Translations under genes and position numbers: made by a program
In this document: positions 42 to 10,095 of the stretch, in pieces
Position numbering within the stretch: the stretch's first letter is position 1
Layout: each line of letters opens with the position of its first letter
Notes under the pieces: generated by a model
What the model saw: only the letters and a program-made list of their open reading frames with translations
The model's database searches: none
Told to the model about the DNA's origin: nothing
NCBI GenBank assembly: GCA_018266075.1
Contig: JAFEBB010000038.1
Coordinates: 64,001 to 74,095 of the forward strand
Reading direction: 5' to 3'
DNA length: 10,095 bases
Source: Deltaproteobacteria bacterium
GTDB taxonomy: Bacteria; Myxococcota; Myxococcia; Myxococcales; SZAS-1

Positions 42-2135
42 TTAATGCGCAGGCACGTCGGCCGGGCCCTCGAGGGTCACGGCGAGGATGCGATCGCCTT
101 CGACCAACTGGTCGGCGACCTCCATGCCCGAGATGACGTCGGCGAAGATGGTGTAGCGGCCCTCCAGGTGCGGCTGCGGCGTGAGGGTGATGAAGAACTG
201 CGAGCCGCCGGTGTCCTTGCCGGCGAGCGCCATGCCCACCGCGCCGCGCACATAGCGCGAGCCGTCGATCTCGCAGGGGATCGAGTAGCCCGGACCGCCC
301 GCGCCGTCGCCGCGGGGATCGCCGCCTTGCACCACGAAGCCCGGCACCACGCGATGGAAGGTCAGCTGGTCGAAGTAGCCGCGCTCGGCCAGGTCGGCGA
401 AGTTCTCCGCGGTGAAGCTGCCCGCGTGCAGCCGCATGCGGATCTCGCCGCGGCTGGTAGCGATGCGGGCCACCTTCTCGCCCTGCAGCCGCTGCAGATG
501 GAAGTCGAGCGGCTCGGGCTCGCCTTGCGGCAGCGGCGCGCCGAGCGTCTTCAGCGCGTCGCGCGCGCCCGCGCGAACCGTGGCCCGCGAGTCGAGCGCG
601 AAGCGCGTGGCGGCCTTCGCATCCAGCGCCTTCAGCGACGCGAGGTGGCCCAGCACCGTGGCCACCGAGTCGTGCTGCTCGTTCACCGACGCGACGGTCA
701 GCGCGCGCACCAGATCCGGCACCGCGTCTTTCAGAGCCAGCTTGCCGGCGGCGTCCGCGGCGGAGAGCGTGACGCCCCAGTCGGCGCTGCGCAGATCGCG
801 GAGCACGCGCGTGCGCACCTCGGGCGCGTCGACCTTGGCCTCGCCGAGCGCGTCGTCCACGGCGCCCTGGGCACCCGCGCTCCACACCGCGCGCGCGAGC
901 AGCGCCTTCACCTTCACGGGCGGCTGCGCCTCCGAGTCGCCGAGGGTGCGCACCGCGAGCGCCTCACGCCACGCGGCCTGGTCGATCGTCGCGGGACACT
1001 TGTCGATGGCCGGCGTGGTCCCATCCGTGCGCGTGCGATCCGCGGCTGCGGCGAGGTAGCACCCGACGACACCGCGAACGAGCGCGTCCTCGTTGCCCTT
1101 GGCCGCCGGCAGCGACTCCGACGCCTTGCTCAGATCCGCCGCCAGAAACGCGGGCAGCTTCTCCTGCGCGATCGCGAGCACGGGCATGGCGCTCTCGCCG
1201 TGCGCGGGATCGAACCCCGCGAGCACCTCCTTCAACGCGGTCTGCACGATGGCCTTCTCGGGGCACGTCGCGTCCTTGCAGCGGCCCACGCGCTTGGCCA
1301 GCGAGCGCGCGCTCTCCACGCGCACGTCGAGCTCGGGATCCTTGAGCCGCTCCACGAGGTAGTTCGCATCTGGAACCGCCGTGCCGTCCGCGAGGCCGCG
1401 CGCGCACACCGCGCGCACGCGCGCGTCCGAGTCCTTCAAGCCGAAGACCAGCGCCGGCTGCGCCTCGGGCTTCTTGCTGCGCATCAGCGCGTAGCCCGCG
1501 GCGTAGCGAACGTCGGCATCGGCGTCGTGCGCGAGCAGCGAGCCCAGGGGATCGATCGCGCCCTTGTCCGGAGACGCCCCCTTGGTCGCGTACGCGAGCA
1601 GCCCCAGCGACTGCGCGGCCGCGCGACGCACCTTCGCCTCCGGATCGCCGAGCGCGCCGATGAGCGCGGGCGCACCCTCGGGCTGGCCGAGCTTGCCCAG
1701 CGCGTCGTCGAGGGCCACGCGCGCGTCGGGATTGGCGGCGTTCGGCAGCGCGCCCAGCACGGCCGTGGTGAGCTTGGCGAGCTGGGGCTTCTCCAGCGGC
1801 TGCCAGGAGAGCCCGAGCTGTCCCGCCGCAAAGGCCGCAGGGATCACGTCGCGCGTGCTGGCGAGCTCGGCGGCCACCGCGTCCACCGTCTCCGGACGCT
1901 GAAGTCGAGCGACCACGTCCAGCGCACGCCGTCGGAGGTGAGCGTCGCTCGAAGAGACCAGCGCCACGAGCTCCACGTCGCCGCTCTTGAGCGTGCGGTG
2001 CGATTCCATCTCGTCGAGGCGCTCCAGCGGCGACGGGCCCGGAGGCGCCAGCGCCGCCTGCGGGGACACCGGGGTGGGGGGCTCGTCCGTGACACATGCC
2101 GAGATGGCCAGGAGCAGCAGCGCCGCACGCTTCAT
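42..2135 (-). CDS. Lipoprotein with HEAT/PBS-lyase-like repeats and a C-terminal cyclophilin-type peptidyl-prolyl cis-trans isomerase domain (697 aa)
   Basis: The gene is the 3' part of the 42..3326 minus ORF. An in-frame ATG at 2133-2135 follows a perfect GGAGG 5 nt upstream (plus-strand cctcc, 2141-2145). The N-terminus MKRAALLLLAISAC is a signal peptide with a lipobox Cys. Repeated D(P/A)xxxVRxxAAxxLG motifs are typical of HEAT/PBS-lyase repeats. The C-terminal roughly 165 aa carries cyclophilin hallmarks FHRVVPGFVVQGGDP, GAVGMA and GGSQFFITL. Stop TAA at 42-44. GC3 is high throughout. Confidence 0.8.
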   Translation of the reverse strand: MKRAALLLLAISACVTDEPPTPVSPQAALAPPGPSPLERLDEMESHRTLKSGDVELVALVSSSDAHLRRRALDVVARLQRPETVDAVAAELASTRDVIPAAFAAGQLGLSWQPLEKPQLAKLTTAVLGALPNAANPDARVALDDALGKLGQPEGAPALIGALGDPEAKVRRAAAQSLGLLAYATKGASPDKGAIDPLGSLLAHDADADVRYAAGYALMRSKKPEAQPALVFGLKDSDARVRAVCARGLADGTAVPDANYLVERLKDPELDVRVESARSLAKRVGRCKDATCPEKAIVQTALKEVLAGFDPAHGESAMPVLAIAQEKLPAFLAADLSKASESLPAAKGNEDALVRGVVGCYLAAAADRTRTDGTTPAIDKCPATIDQAAWREALAVRTLGDSEAQPPVKVKALLARAVWSAGAQGAVDDALGEAKVDAPEVRTRVLRDLRSADWGVTLSAADAAGKLALKDAVPDLVRALTVASVNEQHDSVATVLGHLASLKALDAKAATRFALDSRATVRAGARDALKTLGAPLPQGEPEPLDFHLQRLQGEKVARIATSRGEIRMRLHAGSFTAENFADLAERGYFDQLTFHRVVPGFVVQGGDPRGDGAGGPGYSIPCEIDGSRYVRGAVGMALAGKDTGGSQFFITLTPQPHLEGRYTIFADVISGMEVADQLVEGDRILAVTLEGPADVPAH

Positions 2136-2267: not shown

Positions 2268-3470
2268 TTGCGCTGCTCCAACTGTTCGTCGGTCATCTTC
2301 GACGGTACGAACGTCTGCCCGAGCTGCGGCGCGGTCAACGACCTCGACGAGCTCAACCGCCAGGGCGGCTTCTCCGGCACCGAGGCCAATCGCCAGCCGC
2401 TGCCCGATCCCACGGTGGACCGCGCCGACACGGGCGAGCACGAGGAGCCACTCGACACCCAGGAGATCTCGCAGCGCTCGGTGAAGCGCGCGGTCTCCGA
2501 GGCGACGTCCCAGCTTCCGCCGGTGCCGGAGCCGAGCGGCCCCAACCGGCGCGACGCCCTCCGCAGCAAGATGGGCGCGCCCCGGCCGGCCATGGCTCCC
2601 GCGCCCGACGACGCCACCGCCATCGGCGAGCCCACCGAGCCGCCCGCCCGCGCCACGAGCAGCCCGCGGAGCGCCCGACCGGACACGGCCGAAGACCTGC
2701 CTGCCGCCAGCGAACCGCGGCCCACGCGCGAGGCGCGCGGCCTCTCGGGCCCGAAGAAGAAGGCCGGCAAGCCCGCGCGGCCGCGCATGGAGACCGAGCC
2801 GGCCACGGAGGAGGACGTCCCGAACCGCGCGCGCAAGGTGGACCGCATGGCCGCCGAGCCGCTCCACCAGGACTCGAAGGTGGCGCCGCCGAAGTCGTCG
2901 GGCAAGTACGCCTCGGTGAAGGACGACCGCGAGGCCGAGATGACCATGGCCCGGCCGGAGCTTCAGAAGAACGAGGCCGCCGCGCCGCCGCCGGTGAACC
3001 CGGACGAGCTCGCCCAGGCCGCGATGCGCGCGTTCAAGCAGATGGGCTTCGAGGACCGCCTCGAGTCCATCTCCGCGATCGTGATGCTGATGCTGACCTT
3101 CATGCCCTGGCGCTCGGTCCGCGGCGAGAGCGACATCGGCCTGGCCACCGGCGCGGGCTTCATGAGCCTCATCTTCGCGGCGGGCGTGCTCGGGCTGGTC
3201 TATCTGCGCATCACCGGCCGCGTGCCCACGCTGCCCGCGAAGATGTTGAGCCAGGCGGAGCTCGGGCTGAGCGCGCTGCAGGTGCCGATCACGCTGATCT
3301 TCATCTTCTCCAACATCGATCGGCACCAGACGCAGTACGGCTCGCTGGCGACCTACGCGTCGATGCCGGACTTCGGCTCGATTCTCTCGATGGTGGCGAA
3401 CTTCGCGCTGTGTGCGGGCGCCGCGCTGGTGATGCAGCGCGAGAGTCGCAGCGTGTCATCGCGACGTTAG
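2268..3470 (+). CDS. Zinc-ribbon domain membrane protein (about 400 aa): N-terminal CxxC-N13-CxxC zinc ribbon, long disordered Pro/Ala/Glu/Arg-rich linker, C-terminal 3-4 helix membrane domain
   Basis: It is the 3' part of the 45..3470 plus ORF, and GC3 becomes high only from about 2230. There is no in-frame ATG or GTG. TTG at 2268 is preceded by AGGCGG 6 nt upstream and gives MRCSNCSSVIFDGTNVCPSCG; CTG at 2232 is an alternative start. Hydrophobic helices include ISAIVMLMLTFMPW, FMSLIFAAGVLGLVYLRI, LQVPITLIFIFSNI and ILSMVANFALCAGAALVM. Stop TAG at 3468-3470. Confidence 0.6.
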   Translation: MRCSNCSSVIFDGTNVCPSCGAVNDLDELNRQGGFSGTEANRQPLPDPTVDRADTGEHEEPLDTQEISQRSVKRAVSEATSQLPPVPEPSGPNRRDALRSKMGAPRPAMAPAPDDATAIGEPTEPPARATSSPRSARPDTAEDLPAASEPRPTREARGLSGPKKKAGKPARPRMETEPATEEDVPNRARKVDRMAAEPLHQDSKVAPPKSSGKYASVKDDREAEMTMARPELQKNEAAAPPPVNPDELAQAAMRAFKQMGFEDRLESISAIVMLMLTFMPWRSVRGESDIGLATGAGFMSLIFAAGVLGLVYLRITGRVPTLPAKMLSQAELGLSALQVPITLIFIFSNIDRHQTQYGSLATYASMPDFGSILSMVANFALCAGAALVMQRESRSVSSRR

Positions 3471-4813
3471 TTCTTGCACCCGCCCGCCCCCGCGCCCGGC
3501 GCAGTGGGCGGCGTGAGATCGCGCTCGCAGGAGAAGTCGAAGAGATCGAGCAGCGCGTCGCTGTTGGCATCGCGCGCGGTGAGCGCGGGCAGGTCGAACA
3601 CGGTCTCGATGAAGCGCGTGATCGCCGTGTGGTCGTGCACCACGTGCGAGACGTAGTGCCGCTTGGCCCACGGTGAGATGGCGACGAGCGGCACACGCGG
3701 CCCAAATCCCGTGAACGGCGAGTCCGACGGCGCGGCCTGACATCCGCTCGGCGGCGGCACGTGGTCGGCGAAGCTGCCGGCCTCGTCGTAGGTGTAGATG
3801 ATCGCCAGCCGCTGCCACTCTGGGCTCGACGCCGCGTGGTCGTAGATCTTCTTCAGCCACGCCTCGCCCACCTGCACGTCAGCGGGCGGGTGGTCGTCTT
3901 GCACATTGTCCAGGCCGTCGACGAAGACCACATTCGGCAGCGTCCCGTTGTCGAGCGCCGTCAGCAGCTCGTTGAACGGATGCACACCGGGGTCGTCGGC
4001 GTCCCAGCCGAGCGAGCCGCTGAAGGGTGAGCCGTCGGTGTAGACGCCCCAGGTGAAGCCGGCGGCCATCAGCGTCTGGAAGATCGAGGTGGTGCTCGGC
4101 GGCGGGAAGGTGATGCCCGTGTCGATGACGCCCGCGTTGGTTCCAAACAGTAGGAAATTGCGATTGGCGAATGTGCCGCTCTGCATGGGCGCGAAGTGCC
4201 GATCGCTGAGCGCGAAGGTATTTGCGAGCCAGTAATAGAAAGGGAAATCGCTGCTGTCGTATTCGCCCATGGCGAAGTGGCCGTCGGTCTCGGTGGAGAT
4301 GGCCGCGTTCTTCACGAAGCCGCCCATCGTGCCGCCTGCAATCTCGGAGACGACCGCGGCGCTCTGGTGATCGGGATCAGTCTGAACGCACGTCGTGTCG
4401 AGGTGGAACGGCGACACCGGGTTGCCCTTGAGATCGAGATTCACGAAGTCTGCGGGCACCGGCTCGGAGTCGGGCTGGCCTTCGTGGTTCAAGTTCCCGA
4501 AGAGGTGGTCGTAGCTGCGGTTCTCCTTCATCGCGATGATGATGTGGCGAATCGGAAGTGCCGTGGAGACCGTCGAAGGAATGCCCAGCGACTCCGACGG
4601 GTGCGCGCCCGCGGTGAAGGCACACGCCGCGCGCTGCGACTGAAGGGTGTCGGGCGGAATTTGTAAGTTACAAGTAAATGGCGCGTCGACCGGCGTGGTC
4701 ATCTTGTTGATGCCATCCAGGCCCCAGCTGGCCTCTTGCAGGTATCCCGCGCACGCGCCAGTGCTCACGAGGAGCACGAGGGCGATGACCAGTCTGCGAG
4801 TCCGCGCGCTCAT
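3467..4813 (-). CDS. Phosphoesterase-family lipoprotein (non-haemolytic phospholipase C / acid phosphatase AcpA-like), 448 aa
   Basis: It is the 3' part of the 3467..5479 minus ORF and starts at the ATG at 4811-4813. The signal peptide MSARTRRLVIALVLLVSTGAC has a lipobox-like Cys. The phosphoesterase signature IIAMKENRSYDHLFG is present, with further family motifs downstream. Stop TAA at 3467-3469 overlaps the TAG of the convergent plus-strand gene. Confidence 0.85.
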   Translation of the reverse strand: MSARTRRLVIALVLLVSTGACAGYLQEASWGLDGINKMTTPVDAPFTCNLQIPPDTLQSQRAACAFTAGAHPSESLGIPSTVSTALPIRHIIIAMKENRSYDHLFGNLNHEGQPDSEPVPADFVNLDLKGNPVSPFHLDTTCVQTDPDHQSAAVVSEIAGGTMGGFVKNAAISTETDGHFAMGEYDSSDFPFYYWLANTFALSDRHFAPMQSGTFANRNFLLFGTNAGVIDTGITFPPPSTTSIFQTLMAAGFTWGVYTDGSPFSGSLGWDADDPGVHPFNELLTALDNGTLPNVVFVDGLDNVQDDHPPADVQVGEAWLKKIYDHAASSPEWQRLAIIYTYDEAGSFADHVPPPSGCQAAPSDSPFTGFGPRVPLVAISPWAKRHYVSHVVHDHTAITRFIETVFDLPALTARDANSDALLDLFDFSCERDLTPPTAPGAGAGGCKN

Positions 4814-5751
4814 GGCCTCGCCATCCCCACCGCCACAAGCCCTGCGCCGTCGATGGGCGCCGACGTGTGGTACACGAGCGCCGCCCCTGGGAACGACGCG
4901 GTGTGCTCGTCGTCCGAGATGTGAGCCTCGACCGCCAGCCACATTCGCGAGCCGAGCCGCATGCGCAAGGCCCCCGACGCCGCCATGTAGATGGAGCGAT
5001 TGACCGAGTGGAAGTGTCGATCGGTCTCCTCGCGGTTGCTGCCGTAGAGGCCCTCGAGGGTAATCAACAATCCATTCGACAGTGTGTAACTGCCGCCGAA
5101 GCCGAGCTCGTTGTAGGCAACGCCAGAAGGCAGCGTGGGCGGCGTGCGGAAGTCCTCCTGAAGAAACGCGCCGGCGACCAGGCTTCGGCTGAGCTGCATC
5201 CACGAGCCGCCGAGCGTCACGCGCCCCGCGATCGAGCCGTTCACGCCGGCCTCGCCCGCAACGTTGTTCACGCGGTCGTAGCCGCGCAGCGGGACGTTGG
5301 TGACGGCCAGCGCCTGGATGCCGCCTTTCGCACCGAAGCCGATGTACGGGCTCCAGTCGTTGTCGGGCAGCACGCGCAGGCCGAGCTCGCCGCTCCCCGC
5401 GCCGCTGCCGCCCACGATGGGCTCCGGCGTGTACGAGTTGGCAATGAGCCCCGCCGACGGCCCGAGGCTCGCGGTCCACTGCGTGAGCACGCGGTGCGAG
5501 AGGAAGCTGCGCGAACCCCAGACATCGCCGCTGGCCTGGGTGAGCGCCGCGTAGCCAAAGGCGGCGGTCTCGACGGAGAGCGAGAGCGCCAGCCCGTGCT
5601 CGGAAGCCTTGAACTCGGTCTCCGTCGGCAGGGTGTCCGGAACGAGCGTCTCGTCCGCGTTCACGGACAGCGGGTCTGTGGCGGGCGCCTCATCCGCGCG
5701 CGCGGGCGCGGCGACGAGCAGCAAGACAATCGTAAGAAATGCGCGGCGCAC
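4810..5751 (-). CDS. Secreted Gly/Ser-rich protein, probable outer-membrane beta-barrel (313 aa)
   Basis: It is the 3' part of the 4810..7797 minus ORF; the remainder of that ORF overlaps prfC in another frame and is a shadow. GTG at 5749-5751 gives MRRAFLTIVLLLVAAPARA|DEAP, a classic signal peptide with an AxA cleavage site. Alternating hydrophobic/polar stretches rich in G, S and Y are consistent with beta-strands. Stop TGA at 4810-4812 overlaps the ATG of the phosphoesterase gene as ATGA. Confidence 0.6.
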   Translation of the reverse strand: MRRAFLTIVLLLVAAPARADEAPATDPLSVNADETLVPDTLPTETEFKASEHGLALSLSVETAAFGYAALTQASGDVWGSRSFLSHRVLTQWTASLGPSAGLIANSYTPEPIVGGSGAGSGELGLRVLPDNDWSPYIGFGAKGGIQALAVTNVPLRGYDRVNNVAGEAGVNGSIAGRVTLGGSWMQLSRSLVAGAFLQEDFRTPPTLPSGVAYNELGFGGSYTLSNGLLITLEGLYGSNREETDRHFHSVNRSIYMAASGALRMRLGSRMWLAVEAHISDDEHTASFPGAALVYHTSAPIDGAGLVAVGMARP

Positions 5752-5798
5752 GGCGGCTCGCGAGTGTGCGCCGGTCGATCGTGCTTTGCAACGGCAGG

Positions 5799-7418
5799 TC
5801 AGGCCTTGGCGGTCGCGCGCGGCGCGGTCTCCAGGAACTCCACGTTCTTCGCGCGGTCCTGGGCGTAGCGCAGGCTGAACTCGTTGCGGAAGAGCACCAC
5901 CGGCAGCTCGTCGCGATCGAGGACGACCATGCTCGTGTCGCCGAACTCGTAGTCGAGGGCCTTGAACGCCTCGCCCTTCGGCCAGCGCGCCACCGTGAAC
6001 GGCAAGCGGACGAGGTTCGCCTTCACGCTGTACTCGTGCTCGAGCCGATAGCTGAGCACTTCGAACTGCAGCTGTCCGACGGCGCCCACGATCGGCTCCA
6101 CATCTCCCAGCCCGGGGCGCTTGAAGAGCTGGATGGCGCCCTCTTCCGTGAGCTGCTCCAGGCCCTTCTTGAGCTGCTTGCGCTTGAGGGCGTCTTTGAT
6201 TTCGACGCGCGCGAAGAGCTCCGGCAAGAACCGCGGGAAGCCGGTGAACTCGAACGGCTCGCCCACGCACAGCGTGTCGCCGATGCGGAACATGCCGGGA
6301 TCGAAGAGGCCGACCACGTCGCCGGCGAAAGCCTCGTCCACGGCCTTGCGCTCCTGGGCCATGAACTGCTGCGGCTTGGCGAGGCGGATCTCGCGCTCCA
6401 TGCGCACGTGGCGCGCGTCCATGCCGCCGGTGAAGCGCCCGCTGCAGATGCGCATGAACGCGATGCGATCGCGGTGCGCGGGATCCATGTTCGCCTGGAT
6501 CTTGAAGATGAAGCCCGAGAACTTGGGCGACTCCGGCTCGACGGTACCCGACGCGGTCGCGCGCGCGAGCGGCGGCGGCGCGAGGGTCATGAAGCTTTCG
6601 AGGAAGGGCTGCACGCCGAAGTTGTTCATGGCGCTGCCGAAGTACATGGGCGAGAGCTCGCCCTTCTTGATGCGCTCCACGTCGAAGGTGTCGCCGGCGA
6701 TGTCGAGGAGCTCGAGCTCTTCCTTCAGCTTCGCGAGCGCGGTCTCGCCGAGCGCGGCCACGATCTTGGGATCGTCGAGCTCGCCGGGGATCGACGTGGT
6801 CTTCGCTTCTTCGGCGCCGTGCTCCACGGCCTCGAAGAGGTGCAGCACCTTGGCGTGCCGGTCGTAGACGCCGCGGAACTCCTTGCCCATGCCGATGGGC
6901 CAGTTCATGGGCGTGCTGCGGATGCCGAGCACGCGCTCGATCTCGTCCATGAGATCCAGCGGCGGCTTGCCATAGCGGTCGAGCTTGTTGACGAAGGTGA
7001 AGATCGGAATCCCGCGCTGCCTGCAGACCTTGAAGAGCTTGATGGTCTGGGCCTCGACGCCCTTCGCCGTGTCGATGAGCATCACCGCGGAGTCGGCGGC
7101 GAGGAGGGTGCGGTAGGTGTCCTCGCTGAAGTCCTGGTGGCCGGGCGTATCGAGGATGTTGATCTTCTTGCCGGCGTAGTCGAACTGCATCACCGAGCTG
7201 GTGATGGAGATTCCGCGCTGCTTCTCCAGCTCCATCCAGTCGCTGGTGGCGTGGCGCGCGGCCTTGCGGGCCTTCACGCTGCCGGCCAGGTGGATCGCGC
7301 CGCCGTAGAGGAGGAGCTTCTCGGTGAGCGTCGTCTTGCCCGCGTCGGGGTGCGAGATGATGGCGAAGGTGCGCCGCTTGTGGACTTCGGCGGGCAGGCG
7401 CTCGAGCTGGGGATCCAT
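5799..7418 (-). CDS. prfC: Peptide chain release factor 3 (RF3), translational GTPase, 539 aa
   Basis: The protein aligns by eye along its whole length with E. coli RF3. Matches include RTFAIISHPDAGKTTLTEKLLL, ATSDWMELEKQRGISITSSVMQF, INILDTPGHQDFSEDTYRTL, NKLDR, FKIQANMDPAHRDRIAFMR and GAVGQLQFEVL. Start ATG at 7416-7418, stop TGA at 5799-5801. Confidence 0.95.
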   Translation of the reverse strand: MDPQLERLPAEVHKRRTFAIISHPDAGKTTLTEKLLLYGGAIHLAGSVKARKAARHATSDWMELEKQRGISITSSVMQFDYAGKKINILDTPGHQDFSEDTYRTLLAADSAVMLIDTAKGVEAQTIKLFKVCRQRGIPIFTFVNKLDRYGKPPLDLMDEIERVLGIRSTPMNWPIGMGKEFRGVYDRHAKVLHLFEAVEHGAEEAKTTSIPGELDDPKIVAALGETALAKLKEELELLDIAGDTFDVERIKKGELSPMYFGSAMNNFGVQPFLESFMTLAPPPLARATASGTVEPESPKFSGFIFKIQANMDPAHRDRIAFMRICSGRFTGGMDARHVRMEREIRLAKPQQFMAQERKAVDEAFAGDVVGLFDPGMFRIGDTLCVGEPFEFTGFPRFLPELFARVEIKDALKRKQLKKGLEQLTEEGAIQLFKRPGLGDVEPIVGAVGQLQFEVLSYRLEHEYSVKANLVRLPFTVARWPKGEAFKALDYEFGDTSMVVLDRDELPVVLFRNEFSLRYAQDRAKNVEFLETAPRATAKA

Positions 7419-7562: not shown

Positions 7563-8237
7563 TCAGTACATTCGCGCGGGTGCTCTGGGATAGGTCGTCA
7601 TCGCCCGGTCGCCGCCGAAGAAGATCGACAGCTCGTGAAGCTCGACCCTGCCCCCGTCGATGTCTTCGTAGTCGTGCCACCGGTCCGGCAGCTCGCTCAG
7701 CGGAACATACGCATAGCCGCCCGCGGTCGCCGGATCCATCACGTACAGCCGCTCGGCGTCCAGACCCACCACCACGACGAAGTGACCGTCTTCCCACGCG
7801 TCACGCCACCGCACGTGAGCGGGATCGTCGGTCCACGCCTGCAGGTCCACGATCACCGGATCCCGGCGCGCGAGCGACGCTCGAATCTGCTCGATCGTCG
7901 AGTGCTCCTCCATGTTCGCCTGCAAGCCGAACTCGCGGGCCACTGCCGCGATGCGCGCTGCATGCGTTCCGTCGTGCTCGGTGCTGCCCAGCCGCTCGCC
8001 GAGGGCAATCTCGCGGCCGTCGTAGCGCTGGTAGTAGTAGAGGACACTCATCAGGGCGGCTGCACCGCAGGTGTAGTCGGTGGCCTGGCGCACGAGCGGG
8101 ACAGGAAGCAGCGCGGGTGAGGTCGCACGGGGCTCGCAGTCCGTGAAGCCGAGCGAAACGAGGACCGCCGCGCACGCGGCCGCAAGGGCCCCGTATCGAC
8201 GGGCCGGGCGAAGGGTGGCTGAGGCCGGAGTGTGCAT
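7563..8237 (-). CDS. Secreted stand-alone C39-like (papain-fold) cysteine peptidase, 224 aa
   Basis: ATG at 8235-8237 gives a signal peptide MHTPASATLRPARRYGALAAACAAVLVSLGF. The catalytic motifs are all present: QATDYTCGAAAL (Gln and Cys), GHFVVVVGLD (His) and YVMDPA (Asp). The longer 7563..8303 start variant would add a non-signal N-terminal extension. Stop TGA at 7563-7565. Confidence 0.8.
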   Translation of the reverse strand: MHTPASATLRPARRYGALAAACAAVLVSLGFTDCEPRATSPALLPVPLVRQATDYTCGAAALMSVLYYYQRYDGREIALGERLGSTEHDGTHAARIAAVAREFGLQANMEEHSTIEQIRASLARRDPVIVDLQAWTDDPAHVRWRDAWEDGHFVVVVGLDAERLYVMDPATAGGYAYVPLSELPDRWHDYEDIDGGRVELHELSIFFGGDRAMTTYPRAPARMY

Positions 8238-8296
8238 TGCCGCCTTCTCCCTCACGCCGTGGCGCTCAGCGGCGCCAGCCGACTGGCATCTTACCC

Positions 8297-8326
8297 GCTG
8301 CATTCCGCGGCGATGGTCGATGCAGC
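8297..8326. promoter_or_regulatory. Inverted repeat GCTGCAT-N16-ATGCAGC in the divergent peptidase/activator intergenic region; candidate operator or upstream activator site
   Basis: Perfect 7-bp arms at 8297-8303 and 8320-8326, seen directly in the sequence. Confidence 0.25.
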
Positions 8327-8337
8327 TCTGGTTGGCG

Positions 8338-8367
8338 TTGACCCGCGGTTGAGCTTCTCTCTACGGT
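8338..8367 (+). promoter_or_regulatory. Putative sigma-70-type promoter (-35 TTGACC, 18-bp spacer, -10 TACGGT) for the activator gene
   Basis: TTGACC at 8338-8343 and TAcggT at 8362-8367 lie about 30 bp upstream of the start codon. Weak match, by eye only. Confidence 0.2.
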
Positions 8368-8385
8368 CTTGCTTGCAGCCGTACC

Positions 8386-8392
8386 CGGGGGA
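8386..8392 (+). promoter_or_regulatory. Shine-Dalgarno GGGGGAG for the activator gene
   Basis: GGGGGAG ends 3 nt before the ATG at 8396. This favours ATG 8396 over the in-frame TTG at 8369 used by the ORF track. Confidence 0.45.
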
Positions 8393-8395
8393 GCC

Positions 8396-9796
8396 ATGGC
8401 CGCGCCATTCGAACCGCAGCCCTCCACCCTCAACGAGGACCGCCCTCGCCTCCGCGGCGGCAAGGGCCTCCGGATCCGGGCCGTGGGTGCTGAAACCCAA
8501 TTCATCGCGCTCACGCGTCCGTACCTCCTGGTCGGCTCCTCTGACGCGTGTGGCCTCCGCCTTCACGACAGGTTTGTCTCCCGCCGGCACCTCGAGATCT
8601 CCGTCTCATCCGAGGGCGTGGCGGTGAAGCTCGTCAGCATGACGAACGGGATGCTCCTCCTCGCCGAGGGAGGCATTTCCACGGGCTCCCACGTCACGGA
8701 GGTGAGCTTCTGGGGTGTGGGGAGCGGGATCCGCATCGGCAAGACGGTGCTCTGGCTCGAGTACGAGCCTGAGGAGTCCGAGCGCCGCCGCGACCTCTTT
8801 GGTCTCATCGGCGATGACGCGGCGATCGACCGCGTGCGCCAGGACATCGTCACCTGGAGCGCCGACAGGTTCCGGGTGCTCATCCACGGCGAGAGCGGTT
8901 CGGGCAAGGAGCTGGTGGCGCGCGGGCTCCACGACCGGTCGCCGCGACACGAGAACCATTTCATCGCCCGAAATTGCGCCACCCTCGTCGGCTCCATGCT
9001 CGAGGACGACCTCTTTGGGCACGTGAAGAACGCCTTCACCGGCGCGGTCCGCGAGCGCAAAGGAGCCTTTGAGCTGGCCGACCGGTGCACCCTCTTCCTC
9101 GACGAGATCGGCGAGCTGCCACCGGAGACGCAGGTCAAGCTGCTCCGCGTGCTGGAGACCGGCGAGGTCTTCCCGGTGGGCTCGAGCACGCCCATCAAGG
9201 TCGACGTCCGCCTCATCTGCGCGTCGCACCGCGACCTGCGCAAGATGGTGAAGGAGGGGAAGTTCCGCGAGGACCTCTACCACCGCATCGCGGACGTGAC
9301 GATCGAGGTCCCGCCGCTGCGCGAGCGCCCCGGCGACATCCCGCTGCTGGTGCGCCACTACACCTCGATGCAGCCCAATGGCGGAGGCGTGGGCTGGACC
9401 CCGCGGGCGATGGAGATGATGCAGGAGCACCCGTTCACCGGGAACGTGCGCGAGCTCATCAGCGCGGTGAAGTGCGCCGTGCAGCTCGCCACGGGCGGCT
9501 TCGTGGAGCCGGAGCACCTCCGGCGGATCCTGAAGGACATGGCGACGGACGAGAGCTCGAACGACACCGTCGGCGTCCGAGCCAAGCCGTTGAAGGCGGT
9601 CATCCGCGAAACCATCGTCAAGAGCATCCGGCGGAATGGCGGCAACAAGAACGCCGCCGCGCGCGAGCTCAAGACCAGCCGCAGCGTCCTCACGCCGATT
9701 GACCCCGACCATGAGCTCGAGGACAGCGAGTCGAGCGAGAAGCGCCCGAAGTCGAGCGACCAGACGCGCGACCCGAGCAAGAAGCGCCGTCGGTAG
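8396..9796 (+). CDS. Sigma-54-dependent transcriptional activator (bacterial enhancer-binding protein) with an N-terminal FHA domain, 466 aa
   Basis: The FHA motifs are GSSDACGLRLHDRFVSRRHLEI. The sigma-54 AAA+ domain shows Walker A GESGSGKE, a GAFTGA-like loop FGHVKNAFTGA, Walker B CTLFLDEIGEL and an arginine finger region NVRELISAV. A C-terminal Fis-type HTH reads RRNGGNKNAAARELKTSRSVL, followed by a basic tail. Stop TAG at 9794-9796. Confidence 0.9.
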   Translation: MAAPFEPQPSTLNEDRPRLRGGKGLRIRAVGAETQFIALTRPYLLVGSSDACGLRLHDRFVSRRHLEISVSSEGVAVKLVSMTNGMLLLAEGGISTGSHVTEVSFWGVGSGIRIGKTVLWLEYEPEESERRRDLFGLIGDDAAIDRVRQDIVTWSADRFRVLIHGESGSGKELVARGLHDRSPRHENHFIARNCATLVGSMLEDDLFGHVKNAFTGAVRERKGAFELADRCTLFLDEIGELPPETQVKLLRVLETGEVFPVGSSTPIKVDVRLICASHRDLRKMVKEGKFREDLYHRIADVTIEVPPLRERPGDIPLLVRHYTSMQPNGGGVGWTPRAMEMMQEHPFTGNVRELISAVKCAVQLATGGFVEPEHLRRILKDMATDESSNDTVGVRAKPLKAVIRETIVKSIRRNGGNKNAAARELKTSRSVLTPIDPDHELEDSESSEKRPKSSDQTRDPSKKRRR

Positions 9797-9877
9797 CCGG
9801 AAGGCGTCTCGCGCTTCGTTCCCGAGAGCCAAAGCCGTAGCTCACAACGCCTGGCCCGGCGTCCGAAGAAACGCTCC

Positions 9878-10095
9878 GTGATCTTCGGGGGTGCGTGGCT
9901 CGCTATCAAAGGCCCGCGGCTCATCGCGAAGAGCTCAATCTCGATCGAACAGAACCCGATCTTGCTCACCCAGGACGGGTTCCCGGGCCCGAAGAACCGG
10001 CTCGTCGGCCTGATAGACCGGCTCCTCGGCCCGATGAACAGGCTCCTCGGCCCGATGAACAGGCTCGTCGGCCCGATGAACCGGCTCGTCGGCCC
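9878..10095 (+). CDS. Partial CDS (3' end beyond window): hypothetical protein with tandem heptapeptide GP(M/K)NRL(V/L) repeats
   Basis: The reading frame is the same as the activator's and stays open from its TAG to the window end, with high GC3. The other two frames have a stop in every repeat unit (frame 0) or low GC3 (frame 1, PDEQAPR). The start is uncertain: GTG at 9878 gives MIFGGAWLAIKGPRL, and CTG at 9851 and TTG at 9962 are alternatives. Unit-to-unit substitutions are synonymous (agg to cgg, Arg) or conservative (ctc to gtc, Leu/Val) in this frame. Confidence 0.45.
   Translation, partial: MIFGGAWLAIKGPRLIAKSSISIEQNPILLTQDGFPGPKNRLVGLIDRLLGPMNRLLGPMNRLVGPMNRLVG
9986..10095 (+). repeat. 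21-bp tandem direct repeat array, at least 5 units with consensus cccgatgaacaggctcgtcgg, truncated by the window edge
   Basis: The units are cccgaagaaccggctcgtcgg, cctgatagaccggctcctcgg, cccgatgaacaggctcctcgg, cccgatgaacaggctcgtcgg and cccgatgaaccggctcgtcgg, followed by ccc at the edge. There are no spacers, so this is not a CRISPR array. Confidence 0.85.

Follow-up and report, generated by a model that had tools for sequence, protein, structure and literature searches.

The subject of this analysis is a divergent gene pair in a 10,095-bp stretch of contig JAFEBB010000038.1 (hereafter the window), which belongs to a high-GC myxobacterium-like metagenome-assembled genome (MAG). One gene encodes an exported stand-alone C39-like cysteine peptidase and the other an FHA-type sigma-54 enhancer-binding protein (EBP), hereafter the activator. 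A preliminary description had read the pair as a kinase-controlled, sigma-54-dependent module. Our analysis favors a different interpretation, to which we assign a probability of about 60%: the two genes are unrelated, individually ordinary and only incidentally divergent neighbors, and the peptidase is an ordinary exported enzyme of its host. The parts of the earlier description that concern each gene by itself were borne out by what follows, namely the complete catalytic set of the peptidase, its own predicted signal peptide, the absence of a fused or adjacent ABC transporter, the FHA and sigma-54 domains of the activator and the 158-bp region between the genes. The regulatory link drawn between them was not. 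The features of the pair are as follows.

7563..8237, minus strand: gene of the exported stand-alone C39-like (Peptidase_C39_2) cysteine peptidase, 224 aa.
8145..8237, minus strand: predicted N-terminal export signal, about residues 1-31 (homologues and AlphaFold2 (AF2) model).
8064..8087, minus strand: QATDYTCG motif with oxyanion-hole Gln51 (8085-8087) and nucleophile Cys57 (8067-8069) (alignment, LahT150).
7833-7841, minus strand: QAW, the second family motif.
7728..7790, minus strand: DGHFVVV (7770-7790) and MDPA (7728-7739) with catalytic His152 (7782-7784) and Asp168 (7734-7736) (alignment, LahT150).
7668..7682, minus strand: RWHDY family motif, residues 186-190, unchanged across 37 aligned homologues.
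8238..8395: divergent intergenic region, 158 bp, read from the sequence.
8297..8326: perfect 7-bp inverted repeat GCTGCAT-N16-ATGCAGC.
8392..8407, minus strand: candidate sigma-54 -24/-12 element TGGCGC-GGCCA-TGGCT, with two mismatches and with GG and GC kept.
8396..9796, plus strand: gene of the FHA-type sigma-54 EBP, 466 aa (Pfam, NCBIfam, G+C at third codon positions (GC3)).
8468..8764, plus strand: FHA-like all-beta domain of the activator, residues 25-123 (Pfam, alignment, AF2).
8804..9307, plus strand: sigma-54 interaction AAA+ core (Pfam, alignment).
9608..9709, plus strand: Fis-type helix-turn-helix (HTH) with the atypical recognition helix RSVLTPIDPD (HTH_8, homologues, AF2).

The gene neighborhood of the peptidase was compared across 86 related peptidase loci, of which 40 include 1.5 kb or more of sequence upstream of the peptidase. 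A scan of genome contigs with the single peptidase protein returned one distant Bacteroidetes locus, and a scan of metagenomes with the family alignment returned 80 further loci. Neither the activator nor prfC, the release factor RF3 gene of the window, was found by tblastn in the fetched flanks of any of the 86 loci. The closest relative with flanking sequence (L006, 72% identity) carries a divergent lipoprotein-like gene and a convergent unknown gene, with neither the activator nor prfC, and loci at 63%, 51%, 44% and 36% identity each show another context. When all open reading frames (ORFs) of at least 70 aa from 87 loci were clustered all against all, only the peptidase and its own shadow frames were widely shared. 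Upstream ORFs of similar length in two loci (380 aa in L002 and 384 aa in L004) were considered as a common neighbor and rejected, being unrelated to each other. The conservation of the pair could not be approached from the activator side because the activator lacks a close orthologue: its best non-self match has 46% identity over 46% of the query, and its nearest full-length homologues, from Archangium, Polyangiaceae and other Myxococcales MAGs, share 38-40% identity at ~90% coverage. The pair is most likely an ordinary chance neighborhood in a myxobacterium-like genome.

The spacer is exactly 158 bp when the peptidase starts at ATG 8237 and the activator at ATG 8396. The inverted repeat within it had been put forward as the binding site of an activator or repressor. 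The repeat itself is present at 8297-8326, but this reading of it did not hold, as a perfect 7-bp inverted repeat with a loop of 3-30 nt occurs in 23-29% of shuffled 158-bp regions and such repeats average 0.67 per 158 bp across the window. The repeat is therefore at chance level. It is not conserved either, and the upstream region of the peptidase could not be aligned with the upstream regions of its closest relatives. The left arm of the repeat also forms the alternative ATG-CAG-C start of a longer ORF, 7563-8303.

The sigma-54 consensus TGGCAC-N5-TTGCW, when up to three mismatches are allowed, is matched 19 times in the window, less often than in shuffled sequences (32.6). Only one site in the window has at most two mismatches when GG and GC are required, the element at 8407..8392, which points at the peptidase from 170 nt upstream of its ATG and overlaps the start codon of the activator. 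Across 74 upstream regions, those of the relatives together with that of the window, the matches were evenly divided between sense (3) and antisense (3). There is no family-wide enrichment of sigma-54 sites, and the element at 8407..8392 is a weak candidate. Because the inverted repeat lies downstream of this candidate promoter, it would moreover be misplaced as an enhancer. Scans of the spacer found no sigma-70-like promoter and no terminator, and no Rfam match or tRNA was obtained for it; the predicted fold of the 144-nt stretch 8238-8381 (minus strand) is nothing unusual (z = -0.11).

The activator has the domain content expected from the earlier description. It matched Sigma54_activat (PF00158) with 206 bits and also AAA_lid_14 (PF25601), FHA (PF00498, 22.6 bits against a cut-off of 20.7; PF16697, 26.7 bits) and HTH_8 (PF02954), the last with 17.4 bits, under its cut-off of 22, the match to its profile stopping at position 35 of 42. 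GC3 over the gene is 0.88-1.00. Scores against the NCBIfam NifA/RtcR/NorR-class AAA+ models all fell below the equivalog cut-offs, and PADLOC returned only generic RtcR/PspF-type AAA+ matches. The motifs of the AAA+ core are intact, with Walker A (GESGSGKE, 8888-8911), Walker B (LFLDEIGE, 9092-9115) and the Arg-finger (FREDLYHR, 9263-9286) all in place.

The other signature motifs deviate in three places. In the FHA region, which AF2 models as ten beta strands (residues 25-123), Ser62, His65 and Asn84 of the signature are kept and the Gly-Arg pair is replaced by Gly47-Ser48 (VGSSD, 8531-8545). The Arg of this pair contacts the phosphate of phosphothreonine in FHA domains. As this residue is Ser48 here, the idea that the FHA domain implies phosphothreonine input from a Ser/Thr kinase is weakened, and no kinase gene was found in the window by Pfam. 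No aligned sequence of the compared clade has Arg at this position of its AAA+-proximal FHA domain. Some myxobacterial homologues (P0124, P0125 and P0133) carry two FHA domains, of which the N-terminal one keeps Gly-Arg and the AAA+-proximal one is without the Arg.

In the sigma-54 contact loop (9029-9046), the activator has NAFTGA in place of GAFTGA. The AFTGA part is kept. Each of the 105 nearest homologues whose loop motif was found has Gly as the first residue, Asn occurring in the activator only. The recognition helix of the HTH, RSVLTPIDPD, contains two prolines and no basic residue, whereas Pro is present in none of 76 homologues at the recognition-helix position and at least two basic residues are present in 58 of them. 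AF2 gives this third helix of the HTH a length of four residues and leaves the tail disordered; the acidic/basic tail runs on to 9793 and ends in KKRRR. A frameshift was considered as an explanation of the unusual HTH end and rejected, since the other two frames, including ORF 9636-9881, hold no HTH-like sequence. Specific binding of the activator to the inverted repeat is less likely because of the truncated, proline-rich recognition helix and the NAFTGA loop. From its sequence the activator may still be an ATPase; that it is coupled to sigma-54 and to a specific DNA site is doubtful. It may be a degenerating or decaying, re-purposed or DNA-independent paralogue.

FHA-type sigma-54 EBPs are a recognized feature of Myxococcus, to go by the entry for Jelsbak, Givskov and Kaiser (2005) listed in PMC12288465. 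The activator shares the FHA, AAA+ and Fis-HTH architecture of the Myxococcus xanthus proteins and differs from them in having no close orthologue, Ser for the FHA Arg (as in its own clade), NAFTGA and a proline-truncated helix. It would be a divergent orphan copy of the FHA-type sigma-54 activators, which are numerous in Myxococcota and typical of them, and any control that it exerts on the peptidase would be a lineage-specific exception and not a feature of either family.

The peptidase has a confidently assigned papain-like C39 fold. It matched Peptidase_C39_2 (PF13529) with 47.5 bits and Peptidase_C39 (PF03412) with 39.7 bits, well over the Pfam cut-offs of 24 and 22. Gln51, Cys57, His152 and Asp168 are invariant in the alignment of 37 homologues, in canonical order and spacing, and a profile search against PDB sequences pairs them with the catalytic residues of the double-glycine peptidase LahT150. 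The family alignment profile matched LahT150 with E 5.8e-13 and PeiR with E 1e-9 in the same sequences. The RWHDY motif is found in 115 of 121 family members. PADLOC defense-system models gave no match for the peptidase, and the named stand-alone C39 families of NCBIfam were missed by a wide distance (PA2778, 30.0 bits against 150; FilB, 19.2 against 475; FapD, 17.3 against 330).

The peptidase ATG at 8237 follows a Shine-Dalgarno-like GGGAGAAGG. The N-terminus behind it looks like a Sec signal, with a basic n-region (R10, R13 and R14) and then a 16-residue hydrophobic helix, GALAAACAAVLVSLGF, for which the AF2 model shows a helix over residues 16-29. Since a hydrophobic N-terminal stretch is present in 110 of the 116 homologues whose N-terminus is long enough, export appears to be a property of the family. 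Several close relatives have lipoboxes; the FTDC of the window peptidase is not a canonical lipobox, so the type of cleavage is uncertain and the product could be soluble or membrane-tethered. The stretch ARRYGAL resembles the motif of a twin-arginine (Tat) signal, but homologues lack it and the Sec route is preferred.

The family of this peptidase is large. An exhaustive profile search gave at least 767 representatives of clusters at 50% identity at E <= 1e-30, and 2,626 at E <= 1e-10. Its members are mostly 200-250 aa long and carry NCBI/JGI labels such as ‘C39 family peptidase’ and ‘predicted double-glycine peptidase’. In eight of the 86 loci (L009, L010, L013, L019, L020, L021, L027 and L051) the peptidase gene has an M28 peptidase, an S58 peptidase and/or a DcuC-family carrier within about 4 kb. 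The S58 enzymes of these loci are DmpA-like and the carriers belong to the DcuC/YfcC family; the order of the genes varies, and the partners are 34-92% identical among themselves. An S15 dipeptidyl peptidase or a serpin adjoins the peptidase gene in single loci.

Fusions tell a similar story. Among the 150 best representatives the C39-like domain is fused to M28 (two cases), M20, AstE/AspA-type, DUF885 and pretoxin HINT domains. These proteins keep the C39-like catalytic residues and have no signal peptide between the domains, and P0245, P0258 and P0317 are genuine fusions of the C39-like domain with M28 or M20. In P0307 (634 aa) the C39-like domain stands straight after Hint/PT-HINT, in the position of the toxin module of polymorphic toxins. 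A further Pfam domain was found in none of 23 other long members, and the scan of 33 longer members found no cell-wall-binding domain (LysM, SH3 or PG_binding). Viral contigs rarely carry the family (eight loci). Three of these, L087, L088 and L092, are IMG/VR contigs of 200-340 kb on which a trypsin-like and a metzincin-like gene come after a C39-like gene (4998-7075, 4971-7304 and 5133-7263, respectively); in L093 and L094, also viral, the C39-like domain forms a fusion with an InPase (pyrophosphatase-like) domain.

The evidence for a double-glycine (GG) leader system was looked for in the same neighborhoods. No ABC-transporter domain was detected by Pfam in any gene of the 10-kb window, and no ABC exporter recurs beside the gene in the 86 loci, where a single MacB/FtsX-type permease lies near L009 only. 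No ORF of at least 70 aa recurs beside family members, ORFs below 70 aa not having been systematically screened, and a GG-leader precursor gene would not fit into the intergenic regions of the window. The M28, M20 and S58 neighbors or fusions and the viral trio point to degradative proteolysis outside the cytoplasm and not to maturation of GG leaders.

The C39 domains of peptidase-containing ABC transporters (PCATs), LahT150, PCAT1 and ComA PEP, share the same Gln-x5-Cys...His...Asp set with the window peptidase, aligned residue for residue, at 23-28% identity. In contrast to these cytoplasmic domains, the window peptidase is neither fused to nor adjoining an ABC transporter, has its own export signal, and adds QAW, RWHDY and ~40 C-terminal residues; neither the window nor the recurrent neighbors yielded a GG-leader gene, within the limit of ORF length just given. 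FapD, the periplasmic enzyme of the Fap amyloid system of Pseudomonas, is likewise a stand-alone exported C39-like cysteine peptidase. It differs in belonging to a dedicated operon, whereas the window peptidase family is without fixed partners; neither the window nor relatives gave any fap genes, and the FapD model was missed as given above. The PeiR/PeiW and Peptidase_C39_2 lysin domains are covered by one continuous 130-residue profile match that spans both catalytic halves, and PeiR/PeiW share 22% identity with the window peptidase. They are, however, phage enzymes with wall-binding repeats that act on archaeal pseudomurein, and the window peptidase has no wall-binding module. Caution is needed in predicting a substrate from the fold alone, since the periplasmic stand-alone C39 class of the FapD type ‘has yet to be characterised’ and its substrate is unclear (PMC5557850), C39_2 domains occur in phage lysins as the enzymatically active domain (PMC8223927), and a C39-like protein can lack peptidase activity on GG peptides (PMC13642728).

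Under the favored interpretation, Sec would export the papain-fold peptidase to the periplasm, the cell surface or the medium. After export, Cys57 acts as the nucleophile and His152 as the base, with Asp168 orienting the His and Gln51 forming the oxyanion hole, roles shown by homology and by the modeled fold. The peptidase would then be a degradative endopeptidase, the resulting peptides being finished by exopeptidases. This nutrient-scavenging role is our best guess from the exopeptidase and carrier company in part of the family, and we do not think that the enzyme is the leader peptidase of a bacteriocin or PCAT system.

Several points weigh against the favored interpretation. Divergent regulator-target pairs are common, which gives the adjacency some prior weight. 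The element at 8407..8392, with GG and GC intact, faces the peptidase and, against a background of ~0.06 per kb, its position is mildly unexpected. The degradative role is drawn from part of the family, eight of 86 loci and three exopeptidase fusions (four with AstE/AspA) in the 150 best representatives, and all of these associations are absent from the window itself. In a possible, clearly less probable model, the stand-alone family with the QAW and RWHDY motifs (at least 767 clusters) consists of uncharacterised exported C39-fold endopeptidases that are not double-glycine processors. Their role would be peptide scavenging outside the cytoplasm, together with M28, M20 and S58 exopeptidases and DcuC-type carriers, or some other non-bacteriocin function such as wall isopeptide cleavage, and the copy in the window would additionally be under the degenerate FHA/sigma-54 activator through 8407..8392.

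The original module, in which an FHA activator switched by a kinase binds the inverted repeat and drives a sigma-54 promoter of the peptidase, and the peptidase matures an exported GG-leader peptide or the repeat protein encoded downstream of the activator, now seems unlikely to us. In its favor are the divergent layout with its 158-bp spacer and the one two-mismatch element on the peptidase strand; the activator keeps Walker A, Walker B and the Arg-finger, and GG-leader peptidases are the nearest structural relatives of the peptidase. Against it, the pair recurs in none of the 86 loci, the 72%-identical relative included. The inverted repeat, at chance level and not conserved, lies on the wrong side of the candidate promoter, upstream regions of the family show no enrichment of sigma-54 sites, and the activator combines an FHA domain without the phosphate-binding Arg, a NAFTGA contact loop and a truncated recognition helix without basic residues. 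Neither a kinase gene nor an ABC transporter was found in the window, and the visible N-terminus of the repeat gene has no obvious signal peptide or GG leader.

We consider it improbable that the enzyme is a cell-wall hydrolase, cutting peptide or isopeptide links of peptidoglycan in the manner of PeiR/PeiW or of Peptidase_C39_2 endolysins for remodeling of its own wall or lysis of prey. Peptidase_C39_2, a catalogued active domain of phage lysins (PMC8223927), is its best Pfam match, the predicted export would deliver it into the wall compartment, and there is a weak PHROG endolysin match. That match, however, reaches only E 0.0027, and none of the 33 longer members scanned has a wall-binding domain. 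On viral contigs the family is rare and, in the three examined, sits beside proteases; its recurrent neighbors and fusion partners are amino- and carboxypeptidases and a carrier rather than wall-synthesis genes. A role as an antibacterial protease toxin, a secreted effector in competition or predation, is very improbable. In its favor, the family member P0307 carries the domain right behind pretoxin HINT in the usual warhead position, and the structural neighbors of the peptidase include papain-like toxin/immunity pairs, CdiA-CT and a type VI secretion system (T6SS) effector with a C39-like domain (9l5u, 8ssm and 9jdd). This fusion is, however, the single one of its kind among the 150 best representatives, no adjacent immunity gene is conserved across the family loci, and the peptidase has a plain Sec-type signal without T6SS, contact-dependent inhibition (CDI) or Rhs context.

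As it stands the pair matters little, both genes being in families already named by annotation pipelines and the pairing not being conserved. A useful by-product is the large exported C39-like family that keeps peptidase company, in which the characterization of one member would give a role of the C39 fold outside bacteriocin export. What such exported enzymes cleave is a real question, for which this locus is no more suited than any other member of the family. The activator, for its part, illustrates the FHA type with changes in three of its signature motifs.

The boundaries of both genes differ from those deposited. The genes of the window (G+C 63-77%) were called from the ORF list, the GC3 frame plot (codon-position G+C) and Pfam, and the proteins P0001, P0121 and P0241 of the source MAG are 99-100% identical to the window ORFs. 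The deposited peptidase, P0001 (176 aa), starts at a GTG at Val49 and has lost the signal, and the deposited activator, P0121 (392 aa), starts at a GTG inside the FHA domain and has lost most of that domain; the stretches concerned are 8093-8237 and 8396-8600, respectively. Longer models are favored for both because of the homologue alignments and the frame plot, and the deposited 5' ends are probably too short. Alternative starts exist further upstream, an ATG at 8303 for the peptidase (the longer ORF mentioned above) and a TTG at 8369 for the activator.

The remaining genes of the window are the following, called as described above for the first five.

42-2135, minus strand: HEAT-repeat/cyclophilin lipoprotein gene.
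About 2268-3470, plus strand: zinc-ribbon membrane protein gene.
3467-4813, minus strand: PF04185 phosphoesterase (phospholipase C/acid phosphatase family) gene.
4810-5751, minus strand: gene of a secreted protein of ~313 aa, family not known, without Pfam match.
5799-7418, minus strand: release factor RF3 (prfC) gene.
9878..10095, plus strand: 5' part (first 72 codons) of a heptad-repeat gene (GC3 0.90 in frame; Tandem Repeats Finder (TRF)).

The product of 42-2135 is a predicted lipoprotein of ~700 aa, with HEAT repeats and a C-terminal cyclophilin-type peptidyl-prolyl isomerase domain. The phosphoesterase gene shares 4 nt with the stop of the upstream secreted-protein gene, and the two (3467-5751, minus strand) are likely one operon.

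The statement above on the visible N-terminus of the heptad-repeat gene comes from reading the sequence. The only match of this gene is P0241, a partial hypothetical protein of the same MAG. The source contig ends within the gene, which NCBI marks as partial, with a GTG start at 9878. Its unit is the heptad GPMNRLV, encoded by a 21-bp tandem repeat of 5.2 copies at 9986-10095 according to TRF, and this repeat probably broke the assembly at the contig end. The heptad-repeat ORF is in the frame of the activator, from which a single TAG (9794-9796) separates it, and high GC3 runs across this TAG.

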